Source: a cyanobacterium endosymbiont of Braarudosphaera bigelowii
Lineage (GTDB): Bacteria > Cyanobacteriota > Cyanobacteriia > Cyanobacteriales > Microcystaceae
Length of the DNA stretch: 32,000 bases
NCBI RefSeq assembly: GCF_020885515.1
Contig: NZ_AP024987.1
Coordinates: forward strand, 150,001 to 182,000
Direction: 5' to 3'
Position 1 is the stretch's first letter; each line of letters opens with the position of its first letter. A model generated the notes under the pieces. It was not told the origin of the DNA. It saw only the letters and a list, made by a program, of their open reading frames with translations, and ran no database searches. Below are positions 3,492-26,107 of the stretch, one piece after another. Made by a program: the position numbers and the translations under genes.

Positions 3492-5930
3492 TTAAAGATT
3501 AACTGTAGTTTTAAACTGTCCAAAGATTTTGCAGAATTCATCATAACTTAATTCATGATCACCACTAGTATCTGCTATCTTAAGCATTTGCTCAATTTGA
3601 CTATCTGATAGACCTGTATCAACATCTCTTAAGCATAATCTTAATTCTTCGAGACTGATATTTCCTGATCCATCCATATCGAAGAAACGAAAACGTTGCA
3701 ACATTGCTTCTTCTTGTGTGTTGGTTAAACTGCAATGCATAAGACTAGTAAATTCAGAAAAAGTCAGATCTTCACTACCACGACGACCAGTCATCATGTC
3801 CATGACTTCTTGAAGTCTTTCAGAAGAATAAGAACGACCTACTGCTCTTAATAAGGCATGTAATTCAGCCATTGATAGGGTGTTATTCCCATCTTTGTCA
3901 AATTTTTTGAATGCTTGTTGATAGAATACCATTTGTGTTTCATCAATTGGACCAACATTACAGGCTACTCCCTCTTTCCCTTGTGCAATAGCATCTATAT
4001 GCTCAATTGCGCTAAGAGTATATGCCATAGTTTTCCATAAATGATGAGGATTTGAATTAGTTAAAATATCTTGTTCTTCCTCAGGTGTGATGGAATATTC
4101 TTCCCGTATGTCTTCAACCATTTTCAACTCTTTGGCTGACAGTTTCGAAAGAACATCATTAAATGATTCAAATCCCTTTTTACCAATCATGATGTCATAA
4201 AGACTTAAAATAATTGCCTGATGAGGATGATCTTTAGAAGCTTCAACAATAGTGTCGAAAAGTGATTGACGATAACTTTCTTGTCTCAACCAATCTTCAC
4301 GATTTTTATCATCTCGTACTTCATGAATACTAGGATTCTCAACTTCAATTTCTGTTAACACTAAATCATGTTCCTTATCAGAAATATTAAGCTCTAGTCG
4401 AACCTGTTCAAACATTCCAAGGCTTGTTGCAGCATTAACATAACCTTCAGCTAATGTTTCTCTAACGATTCCTTTATAGGCTTGTAATCTCTTTTCTTTA
4501 TCAAATCCAGGAAGTATTTTAGCAAGAACATACACCTCATCAGCATGAAGATCGTCTAGTGATCTTCCTTCTAAGAATTGAGAAACATCAAGTTTTAATC
4601 TTCCTAATTGTTTACGAAGACGACCAGCTAAGCTTTCTCTTTGATATAGGTATGGGTTTCTAGGCCAGGTTCTGTATAGCCATAAAGAACTAACAATTGC
4701 CATTACTACAGGAAAAAGATATTCTAGTGATGCAGGCAATAGTCGAACTGCAGTACGACCACCAAAAACAAAGAAGAAGTTGTAAATTATAAATGTTCCT
4801 AATGCAAACATTCTGTGACGAACAATTTCATTATTGACCAACTTATGATGACGGAATAGATATGCTTTATAACGCTTCTCAATAAAACGTCCTAATAAAT
4901 AAGCTACTAAGCCAAATGCTGCAATAACTAGAGGGGCAGCAACTAATTTAGGGATGGGAATAGGAGTATTGAAAATATATAAACCAGGTCTAAATAAATC
5001 AGCTACCTGATCTTCATGAGTGTAAACACCAGCGAAATAATATTCCCAGTTACCTGCAAAAAGATAAAAATAAACAAAGAAACCGACAGTTAAACCAAAA
5101 TACCCATAATGGAGCCATTGTTGTTCAGGTTTTGTTATATTTTCCCAATATGTACGTTCTGCATCAATATCTATACAAGGAGTTTTACAAGCTACACAAG
5201 AACTAGTTTCTATACCCTCTGAATTAGTAGTACGACACATAGATTGTGTAACTAATTTTCGTTCTCCTTCGCCTTGATGAGCAGTACTATTAAGAAGTCC
5301 TCTAGGTTCTGCAAAAATTTTCTGTACAGGAGACATAGGACAAAAATACTGACACCAAGATTTTCCTCCAAATAAGAATCCTACTGATATTGCAGATAAA
5401 ATAGTTGCTACTAGGAAAAGTCCTAAGAGAAGACGATCTGAATTAACAAATAAAATACGGAGAGTAATTCCTATATAAAATAATACTAATTGCAGATATA
5501 AGTGATTACGACCTAACCAAGAGTTTTTATCAACTCTAGCTACTTCAACACGAGTCTTTCCTGTTATAACATCTACTCTTCTACGATGTCTTTGCCATCC
5601 TAAAGCACGAGGAATTTGAGATAGAAAAGACAAGGGGCAAATTCTTCTCCACAATTCATGACCACCTACCAATAAGGCCACTATACCTGTTGGAACAATC
5701 CAGCCCCAAAACAGGGCAGCTCCCATTGCATAAGGTTCTTCTTCTATGCAGTTTCCTTGAAGTTTTACACATACTGTATAGTCAAGAGCAAAAGGACTCC
5801 ATGTATTTTCTGGCTGTGTAAACCAAGGGGAAACTGGGTCCCAAAATAAGGAAAGAATGAGAACTAGCCAGCCAATAGCTAATACCCATCGCACATAGTG
5901 CATTTGTCGTTCAGGAATTCTCGCAAACAT
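3492..5930 (-). CDS. Polytopic membrane protein with NapH/FixG-like Cys motifs fused to four C-terminal EF-hand Ca2+-binding motifs
   Basis: 812 aa. The N-terminal ~440 aa has multiple TM helices with 'RRICPLSF', 'SWCQYFCPMSP' (CxxxCP) and 'C-x13-CVACKTPC'. The last 146 aa carry EF loops 'DKDGNNTLSMAE', a degenerate 'GRRGSEDLTFSE', 'DMDGSGNISLEE' and 'DTSGDHELSYDE'. Confidence 0.8.
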   Translation of the reverse strand: MFARIPERQMHYVRWVLAIGWLVLILSLFWDPVSPWFTQPENTWSPFALDYTVCVKLQGNCIEEEPYAMGAALFWGWIVPTGIVALLVGGHELWRRICPLSFLSQIPRALGWQRHRRRVDVITGKTRVEVARVDKNSWLGRNHLYLQLVLFYIGITLRILFVNSDRLLLGLFLVATILSAISVGFLFGGKSWCQYFCPMSPVQKIFAEPRGLLNSTAHQGEGERKLVTQSMCRTTNSEGIETSSCVACKTPCIDIDAERTYWENITKPEQQWLHYGYFGLTVGFFVYFYLFAGNWEYYFAGVYTHEDQVADLFRPGLYIFNTPIPIPKLVAAPLVIAAFGLVAYLLGRFIEKRYKAYLFRHHKLVNNEIVRHRMFALGTFIIYNFFFVFGGRTAVRLLPASLEYLFPVVMAIVSSLWLYRTWPRNPYLYQRESLAGRLRKQLGRLKLDVSQFLEGRSLDDLHADEVYVLAKILPGFDKEKRLQAYKGIVRETLAEGYVNAATSLGMFEQVRLELNISDKEHDLVLTEIEVENPSIHEVRDDKNREDWLRQESYRQSLFDTIVEASKDHPHQAIILSLYDIMIGKKGFESFNDVLSKLSAKELKMVEDIREEYSITPEEEQDILTNSNPHHLWKTMAYTLSAIEHIDAIAQGKEGVACNVGPIDETQMVFYQQAFKKFDKDGNNTLSMAELHALLRAVGRSYSSERLQEVMDMMTGRRGSEDLTFSEFTSLMHCSLTNTQEEAMLQRFRFFDMDGSGNISLEELRLCLRDVDTGLSDSQIEQMLKIADTSGDHELSYDEFCKIFGQFKTTVNL

Positions 5931-13505: not shown

Positions 13506-14636
13506 ATGGTCAATGAAAATATAGACTATTCTGATCATCCTCTAGCAGAATATATTTATCGTTTAGAAAATAACGATACTCTCCTTAACGATTCACCATT
13601 GAATGTTATTGAAGTTGTGGGAATACTAAAAAGTTACGGAATTATCCTAGACTCGTATTCTCGAAATTTAAACTATATTGCACATCATGAGTTTTTAAAT
13701 TTTTTTCCACTCTTTAAATATTTTAATGGGGAAATATCTATTAAAAAAATATTTAGACATTTAAAGCATCAGCGCATTAATTACGAATATGCAGAGTACT
13801 GCGTAAGAACTATGATGTGGCATGGTGGTGGGAATTTAGAAACTTATTTAGATGGTGAAGAGTTTACAAAAAATATAAATAATTTAATCTCAACTAAATT
13901 TAAATATAATTTATTAATTAAAATTGTTCATAAAATTTTTCCTGAATTTTTAATGGAACAAATGAGAATGATGGCCTATTACAGATGTTTAGGCCAATTC
14001 TGGAAAGAAATGTCTCACATTTTTTCATGTCTTTCAGACCGTTATGATAAATGTGAAATCCAAACTATTCCTGATATTGTTGAACATATTCTAGATAGTC
14101 TAAAGAAAAAAGCACATGAATCTATTTTTTATGAAGTTGAAGAAAGAAAACAAAAGTTCAAAATCATACCCAAGCTAGTACGTTTGGAATTGTTTCAGGA
14201 TGTTGTTATTCCTTATGCAGAATCTATTTTCTTTCGAGGAACACCATTTCCAGGTATTGTTTCTTATAATGCTCAAGAATATCAAATTCCTTCAGATAAA
14301 TCTTCTTTTACATATGGAATATTATATGCAGATCCTCTTCCAACAGGTGGAGCAGGAATTCCTCCAACTTTATTGATGAAAGATATTAGTTATTATATTC
14401 CCGAATATCTCCATAGCATCTATGCTCAAACTATTCGCCAAGAGGATGATCTGTTAGTACAAATCTGTAAAAGTTTTCAAAAATCTATGTTTTGTGTAAC
14501 GACAGCCGCAATTAAGGGCTTGGCACCGTATTCGTTGAATACAACTAATTTTGAAGAAAAGAAACAAAATCGAATTCACCTAAAAAAATGGATGAATCGT
14601 TTTCAATATTCACAGATTTCAATTATTAATGATTAG
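13506..14636 (+). CDS. cupB: CO2 hydration protein of NDH-1 CO2-uptake complexes (ChpX/CupB-type by length)
   Basis: 376 aa. 'HPLAEYIYRLE...VIEVVGILKSYGIILDSYSRNL...FFPLFKYFNGEIS...INYEYAEYCVRTMMWHGGG' matches the ChpX/ChpY (CupA/CupB) family as I remember it. Confidence 0.8.
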   Translation: MVNENIDYSDHPLAEYIYRLENNDTLLNDSPLNVIEVVGILKSYGIILDSYSRNLNYIAHHEFLNFFPLFKYFNGEISIKKIFRHLKHQRINYEYAEYCVRTMMWHGGGNLETYLDGEEFTKNINNLISTKFKYNLLIKIVHKIFPEFLMEQMRMMAYYRCLGQFWKEMSHIFSCLSDRYDKCEIQTIPDIVEHILDSLKKKAHESIFYEVEERKQKFKIIPKLVRLELFQDVVIPYAESIFFRGTPFPGIVSYNAQEYQIPSDKSSFTYGILYADPLPTGGAGIPPTLLMKDISYYIPEYLHSIYAQTIRQEDDLLVQICKSFQKSMFCVTTAAIKGLAPYSLNTTNFEEKKQNRIHLKKWMNRFQYSQISIIND

Positions 14637-14804
14637 TAAAATGATTATTTCATATTTATTTTAAAAAACAAGATGATTTTGATTATATTTTTACGTATTC
14701 AATCAAAAACTTCACATTTTAATAAAAATAATTAAAATTAAGGCTTTATTATTTGAAGCAAAACATTTAATATAGAAAGTAGAGTTACTACAAAATTTGT
14801 CATT

Positions 14805-15059
14805 ATGAATATTGCAAATATTATCAGCGCATTTTCTTGGGATACACTTTTAGCAGCGTTAACTTATTTAACTTTGAGCATTTCATATCTTTTAATAGTG
14901 CCAGGCTTAATTTATATTTACCTTAAGAGTCGCTGGTATGTAGCAAGCTCAATTGAAAGGACCTTTATGTATTCTTTAATGTTTTTCTTTTTCCCAGGTG
15001 TACTTCTCTTAAGTCCTTTCTTAAACTTTCGTCCAAAACGTCGCCAATTAAATGTATAA
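14805..15059 (+). CDS. ndhL: NAD(P)H-quinone oxidoreductase subunit L (NdhL)
   Basis: 84 aa with two TM helices. 'YLLIVPGLIYIYLKSRWYVASSIERTFMY' matches the conserved NdhL/IctA core. Confidence 0.8.
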   Translation: MNIANIISAFSWDTLLAALTYLTLSISYLLIVPGLIYIYLKSRWYVASSIERTFMYSLMFFFFPGVLLLSPFLNFRPKRRQLNV

Positions 15060-19222: not shown

Positions 19223-19615
19223 TGTTAAACCATTAAATAATTTTCGATAATGTTATTAGAGCTAATTACCTATCACGCATAAATTATATTGTACAGATTT
19301 TTGTAAAAAATAACTAATTCAATATAAACTAATTTTATATCGATAATACAAAGTTTTATACAATAAAATCAAATACAACTCATATCTATCCATAATGCAT
19401 ATTTCATTTTTTATTTTATGTTTAGAACCATGTCCATTATTGTTTATAATTCTTAAAATATACACTAAGCATAAAGTAACTGTGTTTTAGTAACTCTCTA
19501 AAATTCTACAATATAAAGCTATTTTTCTATATTCATGATTACTTTTCTAACTAAATGATTTATTTTCAAGAAAATCTATAAATTAGAAAAAATATTAGTT
19601 ATGAATCTTTTAGAT

Positions 19616-22600
19616 TTACATGAAATTTAAACTTAATTGAATATAGTTAGACAACTGTCCTTTTAATTTATCTTGTAATTTAAATGAACAATATTCTTCA
19701 AACCACCATTCAGAGTTACCAGACAGTTTTTGATCTTTCAGAAGCCATTTTTCAAAGACCTGCTCTCTATTATCATTAGGAGGAACTACTTGATAAACAC
19801 GGAATCTTTTTTTACCAATTTTCTGACTTCCACAGCTATTGATACCGAAACCTATTTTGTCTAGTAATTTCCTTATAATCGTAATTGGGCTTGCATTATT
19901 TGCAATACCGATTCCTATTATAGATTTAATGTCTTGTCTATTACTTATCGCTAGATGTAACATTTTTACTAAATCAGGATCAATATTAATTATTTTTCTA
20001 TTTATATTATGCAATAAAGTATGAATCCCTAAGACTTCTAATATTCCTATAGTCGCCCCTAATTGAGAACTATTAAAATCAGGTAAAAATATACTTCCTT
20101 CACCTTTCTCTATCATTTTTTGTGCGACTTTTGCATCTCTTTCTGCTAAATGAATACGACCTTTCGTTAAAAAGTAATGAATTCTTAACTTCTGATACCA
20201 TCCATGATCATCTAACATGACTAGCTCTGGTGTAATAGGTATAGAATAAAGCAATTTCAAGTCATATTTTCGTAATCTCCTTCGTTCTACAGCAGTCTTA
20301 ACCAAAGATCTTTTTAGAATTTTATATTCTTCCTGAGTTAAGTCTTCAGCTCGACTGATATTTTCAGATTCTAGTTTATAGTTGTTTTCCCTAATTTCTT
20401 CGATAGCTTCTATTAAACTATTCTTTTTTGGAGAAGCATATAATTTATTACCTTGAGATTTTCTTTTGTGAAAATTTTTATTTTCATTAGAGAATTCGAC
20501 TTTATGATTAGCTCTTTGAATAAAACTAATTATTGTTTCTCGATATGTGATCATTTTTGCATTCATACGTACTGACATCTTTCCCCAGCATAGTAAAGAC
20601 TCTCCCTGAAAACCTATATCTAAGTCATCTAAAGACTCTAAATCAGACTGTTGCAAAAATCTAATATTTAAGTTTGTTAATCGATGACCTGAAGTGAGTA
20701 ACCCTGGGATTGATACTGAACCATTGCCTACTTTGTTGAATCCGTAAGATGCTAGCCAAAGATAACGAGGAATATTTTCCCTGACTCTGCCTAATGATTG
20801 AATAACAGATGTAGGATTTTGAATCCCTTGAGCTAGACACCAAACAGAACTAAAATGTCCCTTTATGTCAATACTAATCCCTGTCTCAAGAACAGGACTA
20901 GTAATGACAATATCATATATAGTTAATATTGAGTCTAACTGATTAATACATTCATAAGCATTATGATTTGGGTCTTTTAAAGATTCAGAATCAATACGAA
21001 GAATTTTAGTATTAGGAAATTGTTGTTGTAAGTATAATTCTAAAGTTTGTGTACCCCATTTGCTAGTTAATTTTTGGGCAGATAAGCAAATATAAGGTTT
21101 ACCTCCTTGTTGAATATGTTCCACTAAATCTTTTAAAAATTTTCTGGGAGTATTTTCTACATAGTTGTATGCTTTCCACGTACTTGAAGATTTAGGTATC
21201 CAATTATTCCTGACTATGTAAGGTTCTATCGGATATCCGGATAGGGCAATTAAATATTCTATAGAAATATTACTAAGATCTGCGTCAGCAATGAACATTC
21301 TACCTTCTCCGTTCATAACTGCCTGAACTAAACTTTTCAAGCACTTTAAAATGGAGACTCGATTACTAGAACAGGTATCAGAATTTAGACCATGCCAAAG
21401 TACTTGTTCAACCTCATCAATAATAATGAGAGCATCTTGCCAATCATGTGGATTAAAATTTGCTTGTGATTTCTCATGTAAAGAGTCAATACATAGACCA
21501 TATCCTAAGTATTCTTCAGAACTATTATCCTGATATTCCTTAATATATGAAAGTCCAAAACGTTGACATAACTGTTCAACTAATTTGATACGATGTCCAA
21601 TCACGAGAATTTTCTGTTTTTTCGTAATTGCCTTCTGAACAATTTTAGATAAAAATTTAGTTTTTCCTGTACCGATACCAGATTTAATAGCAACTAGTTT
21701 TTTTGTTTCAGGTATTGATAAATTCGGGATATAAGGAGTGTTGACTTCTAGATCAGAATCAAGTGTTAAATGATTTAATTCTCTTGCTTTCCAAGTTTCA
21801 ATAGGAAGAGCTTTCTCATAGCATTCATCAAAAGCATTATTTCCAGAATTTAATAAAAAGTCATCTACTCCTTTTCCATGTTTTGAGTCCCAGGTAGGAA
21901 TTTTAACTTGACATCCTAGAGAATTCATTAGAAATCCTAATTTTCTTATCGCTTTATTTACAGCTTTAAAAGTATTAGGTTTACTATCTTGATCAAAAGC
22001 AATATAAACACTTCTTCCTGTTGCTACTAATTTGTGTAATTGGGGAATTAAATAAGATTTTCCAATACGACGACCGATCTCATTTTTTGGTGTACGATAA
22101 CCATTATTGATACCAGGAAGAGCAATTGAAACATAGCCTGCAGTTAGTAGTGCGCCAGCTTTCTTTGCACCTTCTGTTATACAAAGCGGAATGGATTTAT
22201 TATCGATTACCCATTGCCAAAATCCAAAGTCTGACTGCGATCTATCAACTATTTCTGATTTAAATTCAATATTGTATCTGTGAGCTATCCTCCGCCATAA
22301 ATGTAATGGTACTCTTAAAGCAAAAATACCTGTTGGTGTTTTTGGGGGATGTTCATATCTGATTATTTTGTTTTCATCATAGTTAAAGCGTGGTTTATCT
22401 GGTTTAAAACACCCCCAAAGATCGTTAGTTCCTGTCATAATATCGATACCAGAACACCACCAGCCTCCTTTCTCCACGTGCTCATAACGCTTTAATATGG
22501 AATTGCTAATCCTGCCATCGTTCCTTCTCGTAAGCTCATCAGAGTATAGTAGATACTCTGATGGAGAAGTTCCTTTCAAAGTTTTTACGTTTAATTCAAT

Positions 22601-22648
22601 CAATTGCCTATCAACGCAACTGTTTAACCATTCTTGTTCATGTCCCAC
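19616..22648 (-). CDS. Toprim/DUF3854 primase-like plus P-loop helicase protein, with the architecture of cyanobacterial plasmid replication initiators (CyRepA family)
   Basis: 1010 aa with a GTG start. Toprim-like Glu in 'CITEGAKKAG' (aa ~159) and DxD in 'YIAFDQDSK' (aa ~219-221). Walker A 'SGIGTGKTK' (aa ~323-331, nt ~21656-21682). Walker B 'LIIIDEVE' (aa ~407-414). A long C-terminal region follows with no motif I recognise. Confidence 0.75.
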   Translation of the reverse strand: MGHEQEWLNSCVDRQLIELNVKTLKGTSPSEYLLYSDELTRRNDGRISNSILKRYEHVEKGGWWCSGIDIMTGTNDLWGCFKPDKPRFNYDENKIIRYEHPPKTPTGIFALRVPLHLWRRIAHRYNIEFKSEIVDRSQSDFGFWQWVIDNKSIPLCITEGAKKAGALLTAGYVSIALPGINNGYRTPKNEIGRRIGKSYLIPQLHKLVATGRSVYIAFDQDSKPNTFKAVNKAIRKLGFLMNSLGCQVKIPTWDSKHGKGVDDFLLNSGNNAFDECYEKALPIETWKARELNHLTLDSDLEVNTPYIPNLSIPETKKLVAIKSGIGTGKTKFLSKIVQKAITKKQKILVIGHRIKLVEQLCQRFGLSYIKEYQDNSSEEYLGYGLCIDSLHEKSQANFNPHDWQDALIIIDEVEQVLWHGLNSDTCSSNRVSILKCLKSLVQAVMNGEGRMFIADADLSNISIEYLIALSGYPIEPYIVRNNWIPKSSSTWKAYNYVENTPRKFLKDLVEHIQQGGKPYICLSAQKLTSKWGTQTLELYLQQQFPNTKILRIDSESLKDPNHNAYECINQLDSILTIYDIVITSPVLETGISIDIKGHFSSVWCLAQGIQNPTSVIQSLGRVRENIPRYLWLASYGFNKVGNGSVSIPGLLTSGHRLTNLNIRFLQQSDLESLDDLDIGFQGESLLCWGKMSVRMNAKMITYRETIISFIQRANHKVEFSNENKNFHKRKSQGNKLYASPKKNSLIEAIEEIRENNYKLESENISRAEDLTQEEYKILKRSLVKTAVERRRLRKYDLKLLYSIPITPELVMLDDHGWYQKLRIHYFLTKGRIHLAERDAKVAQKMIEKGEGSIFLPDFNSSQLGATIGILEVLGIHTLLHNINRKIINIDPDLVKMLHLAISNRQDIKSIIGIGIANNASPITIIRKLLDKIGFGINSCGSQKIGKKRFRVYQVVPPNDNREQVFEKWLLKDQKLSGNSEWWFEEYCSFKLQDKLKGQLSNYIQLSLNFM

Positions 22649-22769
22649 GCTTTTTTCTCGACTTTTAATGCCACAAAAGCACTATCTATAGTATTAAGAT
22701 CTAAATCCTAAGGAAAAAAAACTAAATATGGAAGATACAAATAAACTACTATGTTAAAAGAATAATTTA

Positions 22770-22808
22770 AATATCTCAACGATAAGTTTAACTTATCGTT
22801 GAGATATT
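22770..22808. repeat. 17-bp perfect palindromic hairpin in the divergent spacer upstream of the Rep-like gene
   Basis: AATATCTCAACGATAAG (22770-22786), centre TTTAA, CTTATCGTTGAGATATT (22792-22808). It lies about 120 nt upstream of the GTG at 22648. Both flanking genes transcribe away from it. Confidence 0.6.
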
Positions 22809-23140
22809 ATTTCTGAATCATAAAAATTCAAGGCGAACTGGTAAATATATAAATATAGTTTTTTATCCAGATTCTCCTAAAGGTTAGGATAGGATTACTA
22901 TCCAATAACTCATGCAGAAAAATATTAGAGTTAACATATTCATAATTTGGAGTTAAGATGCATAATGTATTTTTTGAATTGTTTAACTTTTTCTTGAAAA
23001 TACATAGTCGTGCTATCTTAAAGTTATTTATCTAGTAATAAAACTTTAATAATAAAGAGCAACATTTCCTCTAGGATCAATGGCAGCATTTTCATAAAAT
23101 TTTAAAAAATCTCTAAACAATTGATTTTAGAAAAAAATCT

Positions 23141-23266
23141 ATGATTATAGTCATGAAAGGTAACTCTCCAATTAATGAAACTGAACGTGTTAGTACAGAA
23201 ATTGAAAATTGGGGATTAACTCCTAAAAAAATATTGGTAAACACAAAGCTATTATTGAGTCAATAG
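23141..23266 (+). pseudogene. Detached N-terminal ferredoxin-like/ACT-like regulatory domain fragment of DAHP synthase (frame 2, stops at 23264-23266)
   Basis: ATG at 23141 encodes 'MIIVMKGNSPINETERVSTEIENWGLTPKK', which is the typical start of cyanobacterial type I-beta DAHP synthases. After the A7 run (23225-23231) this frame gives 'ILVNTKLLLSQ*'. The homologous sequence continues in frame 1. Confidence 0.7.
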
Positions 23267-23328
23267 GAGAAATTGTTTCTCCTATTGACTCAATAAGTAA
23301 AGAAATTAACCCATGGATTGAAAGTGTT

Positions 23329-24177
23329 TTGTTAGTAGAACATCCTTTTAAGCGCGCAAGTCTAGAATATGTCGGCGGAAAATATAGTGAAGTTATTATC
23401 AGCACTCCTAATGGAATTGTGCCAATTGGTAGAAATCATCCTATAGTAGTTGTAGCTGGTCCCTGTTCGGTCGAGAGTAAAACTATGATTGTTGAGACTG
23501 CTCAGCAAGTCAAAGCGTCAGGAGCTAAGTTTTTAAGAGGTGGTGCTTACAAACCTCGTACTTCTCCATATGCCTTCCAAGGTTATGGAGAAAGTGCTCT
23601 AGAGTTATTATCTATTGCTAAGGAAGAAACTGGCCTGGGTATCATAACAGAAGTTATGGATGCTAGTGATTTGGATAAGATTAAAGAAGTCGCTGATGTT
23701 ATTCAAGTAGGAGCTAGAAATATGCAAAATTTTTCTTTACTTAAGAAAGTTGGCTCTCAAGAAAAGCCTATTCTTCTTAAACGAGGAATAGCGGCTACTA
23801 TTAATGAATGGTTAATGGCTGCTGAATATATATTGGCTGCCGGAAATCCAAATGTTATTCTCTGTGAGAGAGGAATTAGAACTTTTGACACTAAATATAC
23901 TCGTAATACTTTAGATTTATCTGTAATACCGGTTTTACGCTCTCTAACTCATTTGCCAATCATGGTTGATCCTAGTCATGGTACTGGAAGAGCAGACTAT
24001 GTTCCTTCTATGGCTGCAGCAGCAGTAGTAGCAGGTACAGATTCACTGATGATTGAAGTACATCCGAATCCTGCAAAGGCACTATCAGACGGAATTCAAT
24101 CATTAACTCCAGTAAAATTTGATAATCTTATGCATAAGATATTAATTATTTCTCAAACAGTTCATAGATTAGTATGA
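23329..24177 (+). CDS. aroF: 3-deoxy-7-phosphoheptulonate (DAHP) synthase, type I-beta catalytic barrel (ORF-track start is TTG)
   Basis: 'VVAGPCSVES', 'GAKFLRGGAYKPRTSPY.FQG', 'GARNMQNF', 'KRG' and 'DPSHGTG' are conserved blocks of the DAHPS/KDO8PS I-beta family. The same frame stays open and homologous back to 23227. Confidence 0.88.
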   Translation: MLVEHPFKRASLEYVGGKYSEVIISTPNGIVPIGRNHPIVVVAGPCSVESKTMIVETAQQVKASGAKFLRGGAYKPRTSPYAFQGYGESALELLSIAKEETGLGIITEVMDASDLDKIKEVADVIQVGARNMQNFSLLKKVGSQEKPILLKRGIAATINEWLMAAEYILAAGNPNVILCERGIRTFDTKYTRNTLDLSVIPVLRSLTHLPIMVDPSHGTGRADYVPSMAAAAVVAGTDSLMIEVHPNPAKALSDGIQSLTPVKFDNLMHKILIISQTVHRLV

Positions 24178-25073: not shown

Positions 25074-26107
25074 CTGGTATTGTAATTAAAATTATAAGAT
25101 GTTTAATTCTGAAAGTTTGTAAAAGAGCCGATTCATACTATGTTTTTAAGAAAATAACAAAAATTAAAAGAAATATAAAAATAGTATACGTAAGAGGCTA
25201 AAATAAATTTACTGAATGCTATAGAAGAAAGTAAGTTAAATTCTAATAATACTACTAATATTGTTCTTATCACTATCAATAAACAATTCAATATAAATCA
25301 TTAGGTTGCTGTTATCATAACACTTACTATATATTTAAGATTAAATACATAGTAAGTGTAAGCTATAGACATAGTTAAATAATATGAGAATTATTTTCTA
25401 TATCAATAATTTAAGTTTAAAATATTTATTTTAGTTAGCAAAATATTAATTAGAAACTAATATTAATACACTTAATCATTAAATTCACTGGTTAAGTGCA
25501 TTGTTCATAATAGAATAAATAATATTCTCTATGAATAAAAAACAAAATTATCATATAATTTACTCAATTAGAGTATCCTGAATTAACTATAGTTCTCAAC
25601 ACAAATTGATTAACTAATATTTGTATTTACATGAAAATATTGTTTTTCCACTTTTAAAATAACTTTATTATCATAAGAAAAGTTATTAATATATTTCTTT
25701 ATAAAACTCTTTTAAAATATTAAAAGCATAAAATAATACTTAACTTATAATATTAAACTTTATGAATAATCTACTTATCTCTAGAATGAAATTTGAACTT
25801 AATAAAAAAGAAAAGATCTTGTTTCTTTAAAGTAATTAATAATTATTTATTTGTTACCTTCTCTAAAACTATTCATATATTAAAAAAAGTATATTCTACC
25901 TAATCTGCGAATTTAAGTATGTGATTGTAGTCAAATATTATGTCTAAAATTTTAACTAATATCTATTGAAGTTATTATAGCTTATTGATTTAATTAGTAA
26001 ATGATTTAAGAGATGGGATATCATCTTTTGCACGTAATTTTATTACTATAGCTAAAATTTAACTTCTTCTTAAAAAAGTTAACAACTAAGTTAAAATCGA
26101 TATTAGC

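Follow-up and report, generated by a model that had tools for sequence, protein, structure and literature searches.

A chromosomal CyRepA1-family primase-helicase and its conserved upstream inverted-box element as a candidate DnaA-independent initiator in UCYN-A

A 32,000-nucleotide stretch of the genome of the cyanobacterial endosymbiont of Braarudosphaera bigelowii (UCYN-A; contig NZ_AP024987.1, positions 150,001 to 182,000; hereafter the window) carries, among housekeeping genes, a member of the CyRepA1 family of plasmid replication proteins (Table 1). The protein belongs to the family and its catalytic motifs are intact. Its models match the folds of replication enzymes, its gene is under strong purifying selection within a clade of chromosomal homologs, and a conserved cis element lies directly upstream. 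We propose that it is the best candidate for a DnaA-independent chromosomal initiator in UCYN-A, a reading whose chance we place a little short of even. The protein would bind the upstream element and initiate replication, and may act as the main initiator. A preliminary description of this DNA had suggested a replacement chromosomal initiator, a proposal that we regard as plausible and unproven.

The open reading frame (ORF) begins with GTG, and its start does not lie further 5' because an in-frame TAA is found six codons upstream. Pfam DUF3854 (PF12965) matches residues 143-271 (E=3.7e-51), while the NCBIfam profile NF042913 ('plasmid replication protein, CyRepA1 family') matches residues 315-938 over profile positions 1-594 of 595 with 591.5 bits, the curated cutoff being 200 bits. 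With both models matched by hidden Markov model (HMM) comparison, the assignment to the CyRepA/DUF3854 family made in the preliminary description is borne out. The motifs it had picked out (the Toprim Glu, DxD, the P-loop and IIIDEVE) are likewise real: E159, D219/D221, the Walker A residues G326-T330, D411-E412 and the motif VI residues Q617/R621/R623 are invariant over 60 aligned homologs. The features that define a CyRepA1 protein are a whole-profile match, a DUF3854/Toprim module with its acidic residues and a DEXDc/superfamily 2 (SF2) helicase with Walker A and B motifs, all of which are present. Location on the plasmid that the protein replicates is the feature that differs, the gene being found in a chromosomal housekeeping context in three UCYN-A sublineages. 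Past residue 286, SF2 helicase families match more weakly than DUF3854. They include ResIII and Herpes_ori_bp (PF02399), the latter with 26.4 bits (cutoff 20) on residues 286-426 only. The PHROG families 'replication' and 'replication origin binding' also match the protein. PADLOC models gave 0 families at E<=0.01 for the gene product, and a role in a defence system was dropped.

The N-terminal 300 residues were modelled with AlphaFold2 (AF2) at a predicted local distance difference test score (pLDDT) of 84. The best PDB folds for this model are the DnaG catalytic cores 2au3, 1eqn, 5guj and 3b39 (E 4e-6 to 3e-5, template modelling score (TM) ~0.5). The model superposes on the RNA-polymerase domains of DnaG, and the acidic Toprim residues are kept. 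The protein differs from DnaG in its low sequence identity (13-15%), in its fusion to a helicase, and in that HMM searches recognise neither a CHC2 zinc finger nor a DnaB-binding domain in it. A check for dnaG in UCYN-A turned up no dnaG-like zinc-finger motif in the retrieved loci. Within the N-terminal region (GGWWCSG...WGCFKP...YEHPP, residues 57-100, nt ~22349-22480), H57, C65, C80 and H100 are invariant and could form a metal-binding site replacing the DnaG zinc finger.

The full-length model (pLDDT 76) was compared with the PDB using Foldseek, and the top match is the herpes simplex virus 1 (HSV-1) protein UL9 on OriS (9hgi, 9hgj; E 7e-15 over ~800 columns), with a TM of only 0.33-0.41 and 13% sequence identity. 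Ordinary SF2 helicases rank behind UL9 (E at least 6e-9), and a sequence search of the PDB yielded nothing beyond a marginal UL9 match. In both proteins an SF2 helicase would be joined to a DNA-binding region at the C-terminus, whereas UL9 is without a primase domain and box binding by the window protein is a prediction. We treat the likeness to UL9 as a resemblance, homology of the DNA-binding parts being not proven. In the model, the C-terminal region contains a winged-helix-like module, a putative sequence-specific DNA-binding domain. Identity in this module is 58% inside the chromosomal clade described below and falls to 32% when chromosomal proteins are compared with plasmid ones; no other domain drops as far, except the poorly conserved C-terminal tail. 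Conservation is highest in the catalytic domains, at ~50% between the two groups. Conservation within the clade combined with divergence from plasmid proteins is the pattern expected of a specificity domain.

We found that the 125 nt 5' of the start codon are almost invariant across the three UCYN-A sublineages despite a synonymous divergence (dS) of ~0.6. They include a non-coding element of two boxes with the family consensus TTCCATATnTAGYGT - N25-26 - ACRCTAnATATAG (in short form, TAGYGT-N25-26-ACRCTANATATAG). The boxes are mutually inverted, the right one including the palindrome CTAnATATAG, and the consensus spacer between them holds a T-rich stretch with a -10-like TAnAAT. Using an iterated nhmmer profile, we detected the element (E=1.6e-8 for the window copy) at 66 of 78 chromosomal loci, drawn from many genera. 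It precedes the gene, is found once per locus and nowhere else in the 1.57 Mb scanned, and occurs at 0 of 7 plasmid CyRepA1 loci, pSYSA included. The right box on its own occurs within the element in 28 loci, with one occurrence elsewhere in 1.56 Mb. The boxes are 25-26 nt apart in 31 of 36 loci, while their distance from the start codon ranges over 12-103 nt. The element is also present in Synechocystis, because the published CRISPR interference (CRISPRi) guides slr0554|8 and slr0554|24 contain the boxes, their reverse complement reading CCTACAATGAGACTCCCCGCACACTAGATATGGAGTC (supplements of PMC7125299, PMC10615215).

Other readings of the element were considered. RNAalifold returned no consensus pairs on 49 element sequences, and an RNA structure was dropped; Rfam models matched two tRNAs and nothing else over the window. 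A coding N-terminal extension is excluded by the in-frame stop and by non-triplet indels in the alignments. Scans for sigma-70 promoters and terminators gave no excess over shuffled expectation. We infer from its sequence and position that the element is a protein-binding site overlapping the gene's promoter, for which the most economical candidate binder would be the protein's own clade-specific C-terminal domain. The layout resembles that of OriS, where UL9 binds inverted boxes around an A+T-rich spacer. Another comparison, made by description, is with the alpha protein of phage P4, a single chain that has a Toprim primase and a helicase along with an origin-binding domain at its C-terminus and that recognises repeats adjacent to its own gene. 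The window protein shares this single-polypeptide primase and helicase layout, with an SF2 helicase in place of the SF3 helicase of P4 alpha.

A conserved winged-helix-like C-terminus together with an operator-like site at the gene's own promoter would also fit a protein whose enzymatic domains are vestigial and whose main role is to regulate by binding DNA, or to serve as a structural factor in chromosome maintenance. We consider this very unlikely. The primase and helicase catalytic residues are those invariant in the 60 homologs, within the most conserved domains, and a 1010-aa enzyme would hardly be kept intact for binding alone in a reduced 1.4-Mb genome.

Further upstream, UCYN-A carries a lineage-specific hairpin (Table 1) with a predicted RNA folding energy of -26.3 kcal/mol (z = -6.8). 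It is kept in UCYN-A4 and the third sublineage through changes in both arms (G:C to T:A to T:G), and together with the adjoining T-tract it may terminate a small transcript. A second conserved non-coding block (22990-23100), by the DAHP synthase start, is ~95% identical to UCYN-A4 and ~75% to the third sublineage; it could serve as promoter or leader of DAHP synthase, or belong to a small transcript running toward the hairpin at 22770-22808.

Table 1 Features of the CyRepA1-family locus in the window.
Feature	Position	Strand	Remarks
CyRepA1-family gene, 1010 aa	19616..22648	-	ortholog of UCYN_11190 (UCYN-A1), cce_1866 (C. subtropica), ETSB_0960 (EtSB)
DnaG-type primase RNA-polymerase core with Toprim subdomain, N-terminal 300 aa	21749..22648	-	DUF3854, AF2 model
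SF2 helicase core, aa ~310-640	20729..21721	-	Walker A GIGTGKT, Walker B DEVE, motif VI QSLGRVR
C-terminal winged-helix-like module (putative DNA-binding domain), aa ~881-960	19769..20008	-	three helices and a beta hairpin in the model; helix SPITIIRKLLDKIG
Conserved non-coding element, ~60 nt	22678..22736	-	30-90 nt upstream of start codon
Element, left box CCATATTTAGTTT	22719-22731	-	
Element, -10-like hexamer TAGGAT	22705-22710	-	
Element, right box ACTATAGATAGTG	22680-22692	-	
UCYN-A-specific hairpin/palindrome, 19-nt perfect arms, 1-nt loop	22770..22808	-	~35 nt upstream of element, then conserved T-rich tract
Downstream spacer, rep stop to rsfS	19223..19615	.	conserved only in ~230 nt nearest rsfS; repeats at chance

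To place the gene among its relatives, we compared it with other UCYN-A sequences and with chromosomal and plasmid homologs. The closest species-representative genome is the 'Candidatus Atelocyanobacterium thalassae' UCYN-A4 metagenome-assembled genome, with 91% identity and all genes syntenic over more than 20 kb. An identical protein is present on a 20-kb Logan contig, and a third UCYN-A-like contig has 88% identity and an unchanged local gene order. The UCYN-A1 ortholog UCYN_11190 (1009 aa, annotated as hypothetical) is located near the DAHP synthase gene UCYN_11210 and has cce_1866 as its best Crocosphaera subtropica match (67%); its transcript is present in field populations, with higher levels by day and a minimum at night. 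Full-length chromosomal homologs with 55-69% identity, on multi-megabase chromosomes or long contigs, were found in Crocosphaera, Gloeothece, Microcystis, Snowella, Pleurocapsales, Moorena, Lyngbya and Stigonema, and the ortholog is intact in five complete diatom spheroid-body chromosomes. By comparison, the top plasmid homolog among 266 plasmid records has 47.6% identity, plasmid Rep proteins overall ranging over 39-48%, with Slr7037 of pSYSA at 39%. A neighbour-joining tree built from 25 chromosomal and 7 plasmid sequences separates the chromosomal from the plasmid group in 100 of 100 bootstraps, and the chromosomal clade branches roughly like the species tree, UCYN-A with Crocosphaera and the spheroid bodies with the free-living isolate SU2. 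The tree is unrooted, so that the direction from plasmid Rep to domesticated gene is not readable from it.

The ratio of nonsynonymous to synonymous divergence from UCYN-A4 (dN/dS) is 0.069 at a dS of 0.64. For 13 neighbouring genes the ratio lies at 0.05-0.24, which puts the CyRepA gene level with DAHP synthase, ABC1 and asparaginase II and below truB, recN-like, rsfS and ycf36. The gene is thus under strong purifying selection. Neighbouring genes are not conserved between genera, the neighbourhoods being lineage-specific, and therefore there is no shared island. On the sequence evidence, the gene is best described as a vertically inherited member of a chromosomal clade spanning several cyanobacterial orders. 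The long residence proposed in the preliminary description therefore holds, and is much older than had been guessed there, given the breadth of the clade and the low dN/dS.

The chromosomal setting agrees with this history. In the window the gene has as neighbours era, recN-like, ChpXY, NdhL, DnaJ, tRNA-Met, asparaginase II, CGLD27/ycf36 and RsfS, and further DAHP synthase, an S49 peptidase, SepF, ABC1 and TruB. Its GC content of 0.325 compares with 0.327 +/- 0.03 for the other window genes. Integrase, transposase, partition and toxin genes are missing from the 32 kb, and repeat searches of the flanking spacers yielded just short two-copy matches at chance level, with no iterons or direct repeats. 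The preliminary description had likewise read the surroundings as a housekeeping chromosomal context free of such genes and of flanking repeats, and the composition as native and AT-rich; annotation and base counts agree with it on each point. It had also singled out AT-rich spacers on either side of the gene. Their lengths of 393 and 492 bp are correct, but nothing marks them out in the window, where spacers of 370-1034 bp and a GC content of 0.19-0.27 are common. The downstream one is probably the promoter or 5' region of rsfS, because only its rsfS-proximal part is conserved.

The family name and the plasmid relatives invite the explanation that the gene is a decaying or selfish remnant of a recently integrated plasmid or mobile element, all the more as pSYSA integrates into the chromosome upon deletion of slr7037 (PMC9978351). 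This is extremely unlikely. Against it stand the missing mobile-element genes and flanking repeats, the native composition, identical synteny in three UCYN-A sublineages, the dN/dS of 0.069 and the fully intact catalytic residues. The protein also groups with chromosomal homologs, its sister being Crocosphaera in agreement with the species tree, and has only 39-48% identity to plasmid Reps. Synteny, composition, phylogeny and dN/dS together rule out a recent insertion.

Chromosomal members of the family have been listed before. Sakamaki et al. 2024 (PMC10899382) reported that 80 of 145 cyanobacteria carry CyRepA homologs on the chromosome, without assigning them a function; UCYN_11190, ETSB_0960, RGRSB_0911, slr0554, SYNPCC7002_A0214 and alr3925 are among the genes given. 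The type member of the family is Slr7037, which is required for autonomous replication of pSYSA, a fragment with ssr7036-slr7037 replicating in a heterologous host (PMC9978351). Slr7037, like NF042913, has the same three-part layout of DUF3854/Toprim primase, DEXDc SF2 helicase and long C-terminal region, and it aligns with the window protein over the full length. In contrast to Slr7037, to which its protein is only 39% identical in sequence, the window gene is chromosomal, vertically inherited and slowly evolving, with a diverged C-terminal domain (32%). Upstream, pSYSA has the ssr7036/asRNA1 locus and the window gene the clade-specific inverted-box element. A control locus of the pSYSA type was not found, there being no ORF of at least 40 aa on the rep strand in the spacer 22649-23112; the sole nearby rep-strand ORF (23113..23244, 43 aa) begins inside the DAHP synthase fragment. 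It appears that chromosomal slr0554 did not rescue pSYSA when slr7037 was deleted.

The case for an initiator of the chromosome rests on what else UCYN-A has and lacks. UCYN-A is reported to be without dnaA (PMC6315102), an absence taken here from the literature. The premise of the preliminary description, that some cyanobacterial lineages lack dnaA, therefore applies to this organism. The published entry for UCYN-A1 gives one chromosome of 1.44 Mb and no plasmids (PMC10899382). With neither dnaA nor a plasmid, the chromosome is the only replicon for the protein; as there is no other replicon to serve, the CyRepA protein becomes the best initiator candidate. All spheroid bodies also lack dnaA, their replication machinery being otherwise largely intact (bioRxiv 10.64898/2026.03.19.712447). 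UCYN-A and the spheroid bodies lost dnaA independently, and both keep this large gene intact.

The distribution of the family follows a similar line. Each of four listed dnaA-less symbionts (UCYN-A, EtSB, RgSB and 'Nostoc azollae') has one chromosomal CyRepA (PMC10899382), as do three species in which dnaA is dispensable (slr0554, SYNPCC7002_A0214 and alr3925; PMC10899382; PMC7198777). A chromosomal CyRepA is not found in the DnaA-dependent S. elongatus, Prochlorococcus, most marine Synechococcus or Thermosynechococcus (PMC10899382; PMC7198777). In dnaA-positive C. watsonii WH 8501, the ortholog has a CAA-to-TAA nonsense codon at the invariant Q610, just before motif VI (L011:11828-11830), and in the older draft listed by Sakamaki et al. 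it appears as the two ORFs CwatDRAFT_2429/2430 (PMC10899382). This nonsense codon fits redundancy where DnaA is present. There is also a published precedent, in which dnaA deletions of S. elongatus survive via an integrated episomal plasmid and replicate from its origin. That plasmid is reportedly pANL. The large plasmid pANL of S. elongatus carries a CyRepA gene (PMC10899382).

Taken together, these observations allow a mechanism to be proposed. The protein would act as an initiator that unites in one polypeptide a primase core resembling that of DnaG, an SF2 helicase resembling UL9 and, at the C-terminus, a clade-specific DNA-binding domain of winged-helix-like form. This domain would recognise the inverted boxes on either side of the A+T-rich, promoter-like spacer that directly precedes the gene, and perhaps additional sites in other parts of the genome. 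The helicase would then open the DNA and the primase lay a primer, after which retained host machinery such as DnaB and PriA, both of which are kept in UCYN-A1, would assemble the replisome. Binding at its own promoter could also autoregulate expression, as in many plasmid Rep systems. If this holds, the protein and its element would occupy the same slot as DnaA and oriC, an initiator with a cognate site near its own gene. The fold and mechanism would be unrelated, however, since DnaA recruits a helicase and a primase and the window protein carries both. That the protein is the principal initiator is a bolder claim, which we consider doubtful. A wider version would make the chromosomal CyRepA clade and its inverted-box element the DnaA-independent initiator and origin system of many cyanobacteria, redundant with DnaA in free-living species and the sole initiator in the nitrogen-fixing, dnaA-less endosymbionts and organelles UCYN-A (the 'nitroplast') and diatom spheroid bodies; this, too, is unlikely as things stand.

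Several observations weigh against an initiator role. CyRepA is entirely absent from Cyanobacterium aponinum, C. stanieri and HL-69, which are free-living and dnaA-less, so it is not a general answer to the loss of DnaA, and in Geminocystis copies are found on plasmids only (PMC10899382). CRISPRi of slr0554 in Synechocystis carried a modest fitness cost of about -0.9 to -1.1 units under four high-CO2 conditions (adjusted P 0.005-0.0125), with values of -2.9 to -4 for dnaB and ~0 for dnaA in the same data (PMC7125299, PMC10615215). Synechocystis and dnaA-less free-living species seem to initiate at many sites (PMC7198777), which is not what would be predicted for a lone initiator acting at a single site. 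The DnaA-independent origin of Synechococcus 7002 has been mapped close to position 1, and gene numbering suggests that A0214 is some 0.2 Mb away from it. Within the window the element is single-copy, neither box has extra copies beyond chance, and a scan revealed no iterons. The element may also be just a promoter or operator for another regulator.

The window itself offers little in the way of an origin signal, which likewise tells against the proposal. There is no exact DnaA box and no cluster of such boxes near the gene, a kind of search that the preliminary description had recommended for the complete genome. It had further looked to strand skew for an origin at ~19.2-23.1 kb. This was not seen: the skews of the window and locus follow gene orientation or are noise, 32 kb being too short for an origin signal, and an origin call from skew was dropped. 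The longest spacer in the window (25074-26107), which has 1034 bp at a GC content of 0.19 and separates the S49 peptidase gene from sepF, was considered as an AT-rich origin and also dropped. It has no iterons or other repeats and no Rfam match, and is poorly conserved, being ~77% identical to UCYN-A4 with many indels. As to map position, in the EtSB record NZ_AP012549.1 (2,794,318 bp) the antipode of position 1 (1,397,159) lies inside the CyRepA ortholog (about 1,396,597-1,399,635; chance ~0.1%), in the numbering of that record. In RgSB and EcSB the ortholog is at 47% of the chromosome.

Much of this evidence would suit an accessory replication or repair factor instead, to which we give a sizeable minority chance. 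The protein would in that case be a sequence-independent primase-helicase that re-primes or restarts stalled forks, or tunes copy number in polyploid cells. The element would be a promoter or operator, and UCYN-A would initiate by transcription or R-loop priming, by PriA recombination-dependent replication or with imported host proteins. The modest slr0554 phenotype, the Cyanobacterium species that manage with neither dnaA nor CyRepA, multi-site asynchronous initiation in Synechocystis and the dnaA-less free-living species, the retention of PriA in UCYN-A1 and the -10-like hexamer in the element, which fits a plain promoter, are all in line with such a role, and the authors of the symbiont studies favour host control of initiation (PMC6315102; bioRxiv 10.64898/2026.03.19.712447). 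However, the nearest characterised relatives, Slr7037 and, by fold, UL9, are initiators. A clade-specific, DNA-binding-like C-terminus and a co-conserved inverted-box site would not be expected of a structure-specific restart factor, and restart is already covered by PriA. A general gap in primase or helicase function is not evident in the spheroid bodies either, because their replication and repair set is reported as otherwise largely intact.

Other features of the window are recorded here for completeness. The DAHP synthase gene is split, a 41-aa ferredoxin-like FXD domain fragment (23141-23266) standing apart from the catalytic ORF (23329-24177), and a perfect 21-nt inverted repeat (23252-23272 / 23276-23296) at the split is not present in UCYN-A4. 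The region 23141-23328 looks like lineage-specific decay of the regulatory domain. A ChpXY CO2-hydration protein (E=2e-171) and NdhL (13506-15059) are kept in UCYN-A, a lineage described as being without carbon fixation. An 812-aa protein (3492-5930, minus strand) has C-terminal EF-hand pairs as its sole Pfam match and a GC content of ~0.35, the window mean being 0.30.

The family, its domain architecture and the existence of chromosomal copies are already known, the UCYN-A1 gene included, which stands in a published supplementary table (PMC10899382). In the searchable literature we found no report of a distinct, vertically inherited chromosomal clade or its inverted-box element, of UL9-like and DnaG-like folds, or of an explicit link to dnaA-less endosymbionts. 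Searchable accounts of dnaA-independent or dnaA-less initiation name no candidate protein and mostly invoke host control. How initiation occurs in DnaA-independent cyanobacteria and in dnaA-less endosymbionts, now regarded as nascent organelles, is a standing question. What was an entry in a supplementary table (PMC10899382) is now a conserved primase-helicase paired with a defined site of 60 bp, both open to test, with slr0554, SYNPCC7002_A0214, alr3925 and cce_1866 as tractable orthologs. Even if the initiator hypothesis is wrong, a very widespread and strongly conserved cyanobacterial gene named for plasmid replication belongs to the chromosomal core and has a conserved control element of its own.

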